Shown in pieces: positions 4,761 to 22,505 of a stretch of DNA of 22,505 nucleotides. Each line of letters begins with the position of its first letter. Positions within the stretch are counted from its first letter, which is position 1. This DNA is from a virus. Taxonomy: Duplodnaviria; Heunggongvirae; Uroviricota; Caudoviricetes. Both the position numbers and the translations under genes were made by a program. The DNA is taken from positions 1 through 22,505 of the IMG/VR virus record IMGVR_UViG_2585427793_000014; one strand, 5' to 3'. A model generated the notes under the pieces. The model did not search any database and was not told the DNA's origin. It saw only the letters and a list, made by a program, of their open reading frames with translations.

Positions 4761-5186
4761 AGCTGTGTGACGAAGTGACCACTCTTAATAGCATAACCAA
4801 TTTTTTACGTACGTAAACCACTAAATGATATTTGCGAGAATGCTACCGAGTATTGAAAACACCACTACAAATACATAAGCAAATCTCAACAAATAACCAA
4901 CAAATAATTTCCAGTGTTATTTTTAGCCGGTTTAAATTGAACCTTCAAATTATAGAGCACTTATAAATAACAGACATTAATATAAATTGGCTAATAGATT
5001 TATTTTTATTCAGCCAAGAGCCATGAATAGGATTCGATAGAAAAAAGTTCAGATAAAAATAGAGATCTACTTCACAAATCAAACGAGAAACCAAAACTTA
5101 CATCTTGAAATAATCACATTGATTAGATGAATATTTATCGCGCAGTGACATCATTTTTTAATAATAGTTCAAAAAAAGGGCTCACG

Positions 5187-6269
5187 ATGAAAAAATTAAC
5201 AGTGGCAATTTCTGCTGTAGCTGCATCAGTACTGATGGCGATGTCTGCTCAGGCAGCTGAAATTTATAATAAAGACAGTAACAAGCTGGATCTGTACGGG
5301 AAAGTTAATGCTAAGCACTACTTCTCCTCTAATGATGCAGATGATGGTGATACTACTTATGCCCGTCTTGGCTTCAAAGGTGAAACCCAAATCAACGATC
5401 AACTGACTGGTTTCGGTCAGTGGGAATATGAATTCAAAGGCAACCGCGCTGAATCTCAAGGTTCCTCCAAAGATAAAACCCGTCTTGCCTTCGCTGGCCT
5501 GAAATTCGGTGACTACGGCTCCATCGATTACGGCCGTAACTACGGTGTAGCATACGACATCGGTGCGTGGACTGACGTCCTGCCAGAATTCGGTGGTGAC
5601 ACTTGGACTCAAACCGACGTGTTCATGACTCAACGTGCAACTGGTGTTGCAACTTATCGTAACAACGACTTCTTTGGTCTGGTCGATGGCCTGAACTTTG
5701 CTGCTCAGTATCAGGGTAAAAATGACCGCACTGACGTAACTGAAGCCAATGGTGATGGTTTCGGTTTCTCCACTACTTATGAGTATGAAGGATTCGGCGT
5801 GGGTGCAACCTATGCTAAATCAGATCGCACTGACGGTCAGGTCGCCTATGGTAAGAGCAAATTCAATGCCTCCGGCAAAAATGCGGAAGTATGGGCTGCA
5901 GGCCTGAAATATGATGCGAACAATATCTATCTGGCTACCACATATTCTGAAACTCAGAATATGACCGTTTTTGGTAATAACCATATTGCAAACAAAGCAC
6001 AAAACTTTGAAGCAGTAGCACAATATCAGTTTGACTTCGGTCTGCGCCCATCTGTTGCTTACCTTCAGTCAAAAGGTAAAGACCTTGGTGTTCATGGTGA
6101 CCGAGACTTAGTCAAGTATGTCGATGTCGGTGCTACTTACTACTTTAATAAAAACATGTCCACTTTTGTTGATTACAAAATCAACTTAATTGACGATAGT
6201 AAGTTTACCAAAACAGCTGGTATTGATACCGACGACATCGCCGCTGTAGGTCTGGTTTATCAGTTCTAA
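5187..6269 (+). CDS. nmpC: Outer-membrane general porin, OmpC/OmpF/NmpC family (prophage moron)
   Basis: Signal peptide [30 protein letters not shown]..., beta-barrel porin pattern, terminal ...VGLVYQF. Position between Q and S matches nmpC of DLP12 and lc of PA-2 (recalled). ATG 5187 is preferred over the upstream in-frame ATG 5127. Confidence 0.93.
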
Positions 6270-21477: not shown

Positions 21478-21490
21478 ATAGAATATAAAT

Positions 21491-21512
21491 AAACCCATCC
21501 AAAGATGGGTTT
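21491..21512. terminator. Bidirectional intrinsic terminator between convergent genes
   Basis: AAACCCATC-CAAA-GATGGGTTT hairpin flanked by A-rich and T-rich tracts on both sides. Confidence 0.5.
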
Positions 21513-21981
21513 ATTCATAATGTTGAAGAGCAGCGAGTATCAGTTTTTTATGCCGTTTAACCATAGTTTTAGATATCTCAACTGCACATCGAACTTGTCT
21601 CATACAATGATCTGTAATGCGACCTTTTAGCACGTCACCATATTGGATGGCTATTTTCTCTTTAATAATTTCAAGATCGAAAGCAGCATGAGCCTCAATG
21701 CAATTAACAAATGAGTCCCATTTAAGAAAATCATGGTCCTCTCTATTAATTTCGCCCTGAAAAGCCATAAGATCATTGTTTCTCTTAATAAATTCATTTA
21801 TATCTGAATTTATTAGAAGAACTAAAAGAGGTTCACAGCAAACAACCACCATATATTTTACTTTAGGTGGGGTCGTAAAATCACAATGAAGATACAATAC
21901 ATCACCGGGTGATATACCTCTTTCACGACTAAAATTAGCCTTAAAATCAGGAGGGAAACAATCACCCAGCATAAGTATCAA
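21511..21981 (-). CDS. Uncharacterised 156-aa protein, candidate toxin/effector partner of the Panacea-domain protein
   Basis: AT-rich ORF whose start overlaps the upstream Panacea gene stop by 4 nt (ATGA). No family recognised. Confidence 0.4.
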   Translation of the reverse strand: MILMLGDCFPPDFKANFSRERGISPGDVLYLHCDFTTPPKVKYMVVVCCEPLLVLLINSDINEFIKRNNDLMAFQGEINREDHDFLKWDSFVNCIEAHAAFDLEIIKEKIAIQYGDVLKGRITDHCMRQVRCAVEISKTMVKRHKKLILAALQHYE

Positions 21982-22505
21982 TATCCGTTCTTCAGATAAT
22001 CCAGTATTAATTTGCTATTTTTTAGCTGTGCAACTATCGATTCCAAAGACATCTCACCATTGTGATCTGCCTGTTCCCATGCCGCGTCATGGCTCATGGT
22101 TCTGATAGCTTCAAAGGACATGTTTCCAAGCATCGCGATAGACTTATCAATACACTCTAAATCTGAGTCACTAAAAAAGTCTTCATCAGCTTCACGGCTC
22201 GGCACAATCGTCATACCTGATACAGAAAATGCTTTTCGCACAGAATCGACATCACAACCATTAGGAATGTAACGTCCATCTCCACGAGCAATTTTTATAA
22301 TATCGTATGTGTTGCTTGCTACAGGCCCATCCTTCATAGCGTTATAGTGATCGCCCGTTATGAGGCGTCCAAAACTTTCAAGGTGAAACCTGTCAGCATA
22401 ATAAAGAATTTTTCCGACATGATAGATATCTGGGATCGGTGCTTTAGAGGCGACGTACAGAATGGCCTCTAAAGCCTTTTCTGAATCAAACCTTACATTT
22501 AGCAT
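21978..22505 (-). CDS. Panacea-domain (DUF4065 / GepA / SocA-like) protein, candidate antitoxin (PanA-like)
   Basis: ...GKILYYADRFHLESFGRLITGDHYNAMKDGPVASNTYD... matches the Panacea core as I recall it (KLLYYA...G.P.....A...GPV). ATG sits exactly at the window edge, so the true start may lie beyond the window. Confidence 0.55.
   Translation of the reverse strand: MLNVRFDSEKALEAILYVASKAPIPDIYHVGKILYYADRFHLESFGRLITGDHYNAMKDGPVASNTYDIIKIARGDGRYIPNGCDVDSVRKAFSVSGMTIVPSREADEDFFSDSDLECIDKSIAMLGNMSFEAIRTMSHDAAWEQADHNGEMSLESIVAQLKNSKLILDYLKNGY

Follow-up and report, generated by a model that had tools for sequence, protein, structure and literature searches.

Introduction

What kind of gene pair closes one end of a prophage when a Panacea-domain gene is followed directly by a gene of no recognised family, and does the second gene encode a toxin? 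This question is raised by IMG/VR virus record IMGVR_UViG_2585427793_000014 (Duplodnaviria; Heunggongvirae; Uroviricota; Caudoviricetes), positions 1 to 22,505 of which, the whole stretch of 22,505 nucleotides (nt) analysed here, are called the window. Two closely coupled open reading frames (ORFs), both on the minus strand, fill positions 21511–22505 and are designated panA and panT. A preliminary description of this DNA had regarded them as a Panacea antitoxin gene and its partner in a toxin-antitoxin arrangement, and both the gene order and the coupling of the two genes agree with this layout. The reading that we favour, and consider rather probable, is a type II toxin-antitoxin cassette of the PanAT kind, in which PanA neutralises PanT, an endoribonuclease of MazF fold, and which is carried as terminal cargo of a lambdoid prophage integrated at dusA. 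Judged from its sequence relationships, the pair is a member of a published kind and not a new system.

The Panacea antitoxin

In the hidden Markov model (HMM) search that the preliminary description had called for, the panA product was matched by Pfam PF13274 (SocA_Panacea) over residues 32–143 with 73.3 bits against a cut-off of 25.7 (E = 3.9e-20), which confirms the upstream gene as a Panacea gene. In PHROGs it was matched by phrog_1281 (E = 1.1e-20), and in PADLOC-DB v2 PanA was without any match. No extra N-terminal domain was found besides Panacea, and an identical PanA of 175 amino acids (aa) is recorded on 955 contigs.

The N-terminus MLNVRFDSEKALEAILY is common to the cognate PanAs of five other genera (Rahnella, Morganella, Klebsiella, Enterobacter, and Providencia); these PanAs and that of Erwinia start with M(x)LN/KxRFDSEKALEAILY and have 172–176 aa. 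The PGAP annotation calls a 189-aa PanA with a start 42 nt past the window end, and 193-aa variants likewise begin upstream of the window; both starts were set aside as less likely, since the cognate N-termini favour 175 aa. The module had been thought to be cut by the window edge, but with this shared N-terminus the ATG at the very end of the window is the probable start.

Family and predicted fold of PanT

The panT product had no family match in Pfam, NCBIfam, PADLOC, or PHROGs; hits to PDC-M02B of PADLOC-DB v2 (E = 0.035) and to phrog_29007 (E = 0.014) were taken as noise. Homologs of PanT form a compact family of 148–157 aa. A word-indexed search gave 40 homolog clusters at 90% identity, of which the named ones are mostly from Enterobacterales and one is from Idiomarina, and an exhaustive HMM search gave 1235 representatives at 50% identity with E ≤ 1e-3, 613 of them with E ≤ 1e-10. 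Conservation was counted in 105 family representatives with 25–52% identity to the window PanT; K39 and S87 are invariant among them, and G23, N55, S56, F82, L83, and C91 are conserved in at least 90%.

An AlphaFold2 model of the window allele, built from 24 homologs, was confident (predicted local distance difference test, pLDDT, 87.7; predicted template modelling score, pTM, 0.81) and has an SH3-like barrel of the MazF/CcdB type. When Foldseek was used with this model, the top four matches were all MazF, and probabilities were 1.00 for MazF-mt1, 0.95 for the MazF of D. radiodurans, and 0.84 for a K. pneumoniae toxin. Ten MazF/Kid structures ranked above CcdB (8.1) in the structural ranking, and the type III ribonuclease (RNase) toxins CptN (7.3), AbiQ (5.3), and ToxN (5.0) ranked below it. 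On the evidence of the model, the window PanT has the MazF/Kid fold, while its link to MazF at the sequence level is weak.

Alignment by hhalign of the 105 representatives with seven MazF/Kid sequences gave E = 2.5e-4 and a probability of 43% over residues 18–143; of the seven sequences, only BsMazF was verified against the PDB (identical to 4ME7), and this result is therefore supporting and not proof. With single MazF sequences, hhalign of the PanT family was insignificant (E = 0.01–0.18). The catalytic pair of Bacillus subtilis MazF is Arg25 and Thr48, corresponding to R29 and T52 in E. coli MazF. In the hhalign alignment, from which these correspondences are taken and which is not a structural superposition, Lys39 is placed on Arg25 of BsMazF, Asn55 on Thr48, Gly23-Asp24 on Gly6-Asp7, and Asp86-Ser87 on Asp72-Ser73. 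The candidate active site of PanT would then comprise Lys39 for the catalytic Arg, Asn55-Ser56 for the Thr, and Asp86-Ser87 in the RNA-binding strand. Lys39 and Asn55-Ser56 are chemically plausible stand-ins for the Arg and Thr of MazF and are not the canonical residues; because of this replacement, the RNase chemistry of PanT stays putative.

Partners of Panacea proteins have been sorted into 88 clusters (Kurata et al., 2022; PMC8832971). In Dataset S1 of that study, protein WP_054475897.1 of Photorhabdus heterorhabditis is assigned to PanT cluster T5 and paired with a “noNTD” PanA (WP_054475899.1), and T5 is annotated by HHpred as EndoA/MazF/PemK/CcdB-like (~99.5%) for another of its members. 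WP_054475897.1 is P0071 of our homolog set and lies within the 90% cluster of P0033, which is aligned to the window PanT with 52% identity and 99% coverage (E = 3.1e-48). Because WP_054475897.1 clusters at 90% or more with P0033, the window PanT belongs, by sequence, to cluster T5; the protein WP_000900143 had no match in the examined part of Dataset S1. The preliminary remark that the partner was unrecognised therefore holds for the family databases and not for the published PanT clusters, and the suggestion of a possible new toxin is superseded, since T5 was catalogued in 2022 as MazF/EndoA/PemK-like.

Conservation of the pair

A Panacea gene is located directly upstream of the PanT homolog (41–76% identity) in all of the ten independent contexts, which span Escherichia, Enterobacter, Klebsiella, Rahnella, Erwinia, Morganella, Providencia, Idiomarina, and a metagenomic island. 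The gap between the two genes in homologous pairs is −8 to +6 nt, with the exception of Idiomarina (+42), and the two proteins have diverged in parallel (40–57% identity among PanAs and 41–59% among PanTs). The window pair, with a 5-nt spacer and this constant gene order, corresponds to the two-gene PanAT locus as defined by Kurata et al. (2022).

The contexts are always cargo slots of prophages or islands: the dusA prophage of E. coli, the same PrtN-adjacent slot in Enterobacter, a site beside a dusA integrase in Morganella, two different prophage positions in Klebsiella, a tail-gene cluster in Erwinia, an immunity region in Providencia, an integrase-bounded island by xseA with a ParE/helix-turn-helix (HTH) pair, a context in Idiomarina, and, in a P2-like prophage of Rahnella, the position flanked by replication gene A and the portal gene, taken here to be the tin/old defence slot of P2. 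Since the flanking genes differ in every context and share nothing, the two-gene cassette is the conserved unit.

Two neighbourhoods hold further genes of related interest. In Rahnella (locus L007, 5771–6688), a 305-aa AbiJ_NTD4 protein, matching the PADLOC candidate PDC-S32 with E = 2e-49, is encoded directly 3′ of the PanAT pair. In the metagenomic island (L003–L006, 4120–4816), which has the most divergent PanAT homolog, a ParE-toxin/HTH pair lies just upstream, so that two toxin-antitoxin modules adjoin between an integrase and AlpA-type regulators.

Layout of the module

The panAT module is the AT-richest kilobase of the window, having a GC content of 0.382 against 0.481 for the rest (0.348 in panT and 0.413 in panA), and only 0.9% of 995-nt segments are as low in GC. 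This agrees with its earlier characterisation as an AT-rich two-gene module at a prophage edge, and it forms the outermost cargo of the dusA-integrated prophage. Features of the module are listed in Table 1.

Table 1. Features of the panAT module in the window
Feature	Positions	Strand	Remarks
panA, stand-alone Panacea (DUF4065) antitoxin, 175 aa, complete in window	21978..22505	-	ATG 22505-22503, TGA 21980-21978
panT, 153-aa putative endoribonuclease toxin of predicted MazF/Kid fold, PanT cluster T5 by sequence	21511..21972	-	ATG start at 21972
panA-panT junction: TGA, 5-nt spacer TACTT, panT ATG	21973..21980	-	direct sequence reading
Hairpin, 16 pairs, 4-nt loop, followed by T-rich tail	21484..21519	-	minus-strand terminator-like site
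panT substitutions C71F (21761) and V73G (21755)	21755..21761	-	comparison with E. coli DA33137

The preliminary description had given a 156-aa partner whose start overlaps the panA stop as ATGA. A 156-aa ORF overlapping the stop does exist, and it begins with TTG at 21981, the overlap being TTGA and not ATGA. Its homologs and the PGAP annotation favour instead the ATG behind the spacer: the same start is used by PGAP in E. coli DA33137, and the resulting 153 aa is the length of the closest PanT homologs. The spacing between panA and panT suggests translational coupling.

The hairpin separates panT from a convergent PrtN-like gene (PF11112, E = 3.9e-23), which adjoins the module as had been noted earlier, and it is likely to be the intrinsic terminator of panAT. 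The consensus terminator scan of both strands passed it in the minus (panT) orientation and did not call it on the plus strand; of the bidirectional terminator proposed earlier, the 16-bp hairpin is thus found and its action in both directions is plausible. Because the frequency of promoter-like sites in the module region does not exceed that of shuffled sequence, no promoter was assigned to panAT; a weak promoter-like sequence, TTGACC-18-TAAGAT, about 67 nt 5′ of the panA ATG (locus L001), is a candidate only.

Prophage position and cargo exchange

The end of the prophage was located by use of relatives. In E. coli DA33137, a prophage of about 38.6 kb has an intact dusA and a tyrosine integrase gene at one end and a 105-nt remnant of the dusA 5′ part at the other. 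The remnant was aligned with the phage-supplied dusA 5′ end over 107 nt, both ending at ATGCTCGA, and such a duplicated dusA end is the signature of dusA-specific integration. The panA start is about 196 nt inside the junction of prophage and displaced dusA (dusA′) in DA33137, and no gene lies between them. An operon of more than two genes, suspected when the window edge was thought to cut it, is accordingly not supported; when the sequence beyond 22505 was followed in these relatives, the dusA remnant was reached and the operon did not continue, which is why we place its end at two genes. The dusA 5′ remnant (L001 13150–13410, about 45–300 nt past the window end) is co-oriented with panAT, and the terminator scan found no terminator-like site between the two; read-through from the host dusA promoter into panAT is for this reason possible.

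In the phage-genome collection, no record has the panAT module, and the PrtN end alone is matched. The neighbouring exonuclease and PrtN-like genes are present in 741 of the 5426 complete E. coli genomes, and most of these matches extend to the 3′ terminus of the PrtN-like gene, or nearly to it, and no further. The slot between this gene and the dusA′ remnant was found to hold four alternative cargos (examined in L011, L012, L013, and L014), in agreement with the cargo slot proposed earlier for this edge of the prophage: the T5 PanAT cassette (46 complete E. coli genomes), PanA WP_000287252.1 with a 182-aa protein having C-terminal transmembrane helices (79 genomes; e.g., O91:H21 FWSEC0008), a third PanA, WP_000458583.1, with an unknown 128-aa protein (208 genomes), and non-Panacea hypothetical proteins of 177 aa and 57 aa (358 genomes, O157:H7 and others). 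Neither Pfam nor PADLOC gave a match for the protein of 128 aa or for that of 177 aa. Identity among the three PanAs is only about 30%, so that whole cassettes have been replaced, rather than toxins being swapped onto one PanA. The slot is thus a natural example of cassette exchange, in which three PanA-toxin cassettes and one unrelated cargo share one prophage position; rearrangement hotspots of this kind have been proposed as a driver of partner swapping (Kurata et al., 2022).

The prophages themselves are mosaic. The late region of the window prophage has a lambda-type Nu1 gene (593–1138), whereas that of DA33137 has a P27-type small terminase and contractile-tail genes (L010); because these late regions differ while the early-left region and the PanAT end are shared by both, dusA prophages with the T5 cassette are regarded as mosaics. 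The other two AT-rich islands of the window, 1803–2228 and 5127–6269, are also cargo genes; one encodes a DUF1398 protein (E = 3e-43), the other a general porin borne by the prophage (Porin_1, E = 2e-151), next to the lysozyme and Rz genes for lysis and the gene for the Nu1 terminase subunit.

Alleles of panT and alternative readings

The window module differs from that of E. coli DA33137 by just two bases, both in panT, which give C71F and V73G and fall in a core β-strand (residues 72–75 in the model). They raise the possibility, compatible with the favoured PanAT reading and in our judgement appreciable though clearly short of an even chance, that the window cassette is decaying or attenuated, i.e., that this PanT no longer folds or kills and that an orphan antitoxin is accompanied by a dead toxin. 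The window allele (WP_032242551.1) is found on one contig and the common allele (WP_000900143.1) on at least 1000, and the former is absent from all of the 46 complete E. coli genomes with the module, where the best match is 99.8%. At column 73 the 105 representatives have V (75), I (19), L (5), A (4), T (1), and G only once. An independent +1 A frameshift near 21658 gives a 112-aa PanT (P0045) on 82 contigs; in strain AST240 (L022), which has this frameshift allele, PGAP leaves panT unannotated and panA is intact. The window allele may therefore be attenuated, but its ORF is intact, two further members of the family also have F at position 71, V73G is only presumed to affect folding, and the model, which was built on this very allele, is still confident around residues 70–80. 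A 113-aa “truncated” PanT of ACN002 was also considered as a decay allele and was rejected, because the gene is intact and only its annotated start lies further downstream, at M41. Repeated damage to the toxin gene, with the antitoxin retained, is in keeping with a gene whose activity carries a cost, and is no proof of toxicity.

Two further readings concern what PanT does. If PanT were a CcdB-like poison of DNA gyrase, or another protein-binding toxin without RNase activity, its closest structural relatives should be CcdB; instead, ten MazF/Kid structures come before CcdB, the lower-ranked relatives are also RNases, and K39, N55, S56, and S87 lie on catalytic or RNA-binding positions of MazF. 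Among the 105 family members there is no CcdB family match in Pfam, and validated MazF-like PanTs block translation and not replication (Kurata et al., 2022). The SH3-like barrel itself is common to the MazF/CcdB type, and CcdB also appears in the HHpred annotation of T5. The C-terminus of PanT is a helical extension, presumably unlike the gyrase-binding tail of CcdB, and we hold a reading of this kind to be very improbable. Alternatively, the 153-aa protein could be a non-toxic partner, such as a regulator or an RNA-binding factor, which travels with PanA; several predicted PanTs, including one MazF-like protein and the “mRNase” partner of E. coli MOD1, were indeed non-toxic (Kurata et al., 2022). 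The strict two-gene coupling in 10/10 contexts from at least eight genera is at odds with this, as are the invariant polar residues expected for an active site, the repeated disruption of panT with panA kept, and the fact that characterised members of this fold superfamily are all toxins, and we think such a pair unlikely.

Proposed mechanism and significance

In the favoured reading, a PanAT cassette with an RNase toxin, the stand-alone Panacea protein PanA would be translated first and would neutralise PanT by binding it directly, the translation of panT being coupled to that of panA. If PanA were lost or triggered, PanT would be freed and would most likely cleave RNA, resulting in translation arrest. 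In support of such a division of labour, it has been shown for stand-alone PanAs that toxin neutralisation is achieved by the Panacea domain itself, and MazF/PemK is among the commonest toxin folds in the PanA network (Ernits et al., 2023; PMC10440598). Toxicity has indirect support because the toxin gene decays, as seen from the 112-aa allele and the rare double substitution, while the antitoxin is intact. The role of the cassette may be abortive-infection defence, stabilisation or retention of the prophage, or its own persistence. From the genomic context a role in phage defence is plausible, and it is favoured circumstantially because of the defence hotspots, the AbiJ-like neighbour, and the variable slot.

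Several points weigh against this reading. V73G is at a conserved core position, so that the window allele may be inactive. The profile-profile probability to MazF/Kid is just 43%; none of the 105 family members matches PF02452 (PemK/MazF) of Pfam at E values up to 1; the PanT family HMM finds no MazF among PDB sequences, its sole match being at chance level (E = 0.52); and the canonical catalytic Arg and Thr are replaced. PADLOC-DB v2 has no model for the PanA/PanT pair, and the searchable literature has no phage-defence phenotype for any PanA/MazF-like pair and no paper found there tests this E. coli pair. The sole T5 pair that has been tested is that of C. bovis, in which both the toxin and the antitoxin were toxic; no toxicity in E. 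coli was seen with a MazF-like PanT from F. xanthum or with several further predicted PanTs (Kurata et al., 2022).

A more far-reaching proposal, which we regard as doubtful, is that the T5 PanTs of Enterobacterales are a distinct branch of the MazF fold acting as abortive-infection effectors with a phage-sensing PanA, and that the slot serves for cassette exchange. If this were true, the Lys/Asn-Ser site, the trimmed loops, and the extra helices would be features of the branch, which might cut tRNA or rRNA, and whole PanAT cassettes with unrelated toxins would be swapped, each under read-through from the host dusA promoter. A “hypothetical protein” of about 1% of complete E. coli genomes and of many Enterobacterales is now given a specific prediction as a MazF-fold RNase, with K39, N55, S56, and S87 as candidate active-site residues, and is placed in the PanAT framework, where T5 lacks a clean validation of toxicity and neutralisation. 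The value of this result is mainly in annotation and in a convenient test case native to E. coli, and the general picture of such systems is unchanged.

Comparison with known systems

With MazF, Kid, and PemK (PF02452; the MazEF and Kis-Kid systems), the window PanT shares the N-terminal G-D motif and a C-terminal helix; in the hhalign alignment, moreover, the two catalytic positions are occupied by a basic residue and by one with a hydroxyl or amide group, and the D-S motif falls in the RNA-binding strand. Unlike MazF, it has no PF02452 match, has Lys for Arg and Asn-Ser for Thr, has much shorter β1-β2 and β2-β3 loops, and is enlarged by one additional helix at each terminus and by an insertion around residues 100–114, its size being 153 aa against about 110 for MazF. 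Its antitoxin is a globular Panacea domain, unlike MazE or Kis.

SocA of the Caulobacter SocAB system, a type VI toxin-antitoxin, is the founding Panacea protein, and the antitoxin likewise carries a Panacea domain. The window PanA differs in scoring 17.8 bits against a cut-off of 190 on the SocA equivalog model of NCBIfam (NF047745), and it is paired with a protein other than SocB; nothing here implies that it acts, as SocA does, as a ClpXP adaptor.

Closer relatives are found among the PanAT systems. PanAT(Esc. col.) from E. coli STEC O31, with a validated membrane toxin, has the PanA (WP_000287252.1) that occupies the same slot in related prophages (Kurata et al., 2022). This PanA and the window PanA share only about 32% identity, over 40 residues, and the 182-aa partner of the former, with C-terminal transmembrane helices, is unrelated to MazF. 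Two MazF-like PanTs, from P. moraviensis (T6) and from B. ruminantium, have been validated as toxins that inhibit translation specifically, and the one from P. moraviensis co-purifies in a complex with its PanA (Kurata et al., 2022). Both are neutralised by PanA and belong to sequence clusters different from that of the window PanT; like the latter, they were assigned to MazF by profile or structure methods only. The window pair is most similar in its arrangement to cluster T5 of PanAT, in which a stand-alone Panacea antitoxin comes first and a toxin of about 150 aa follows directly downstream.

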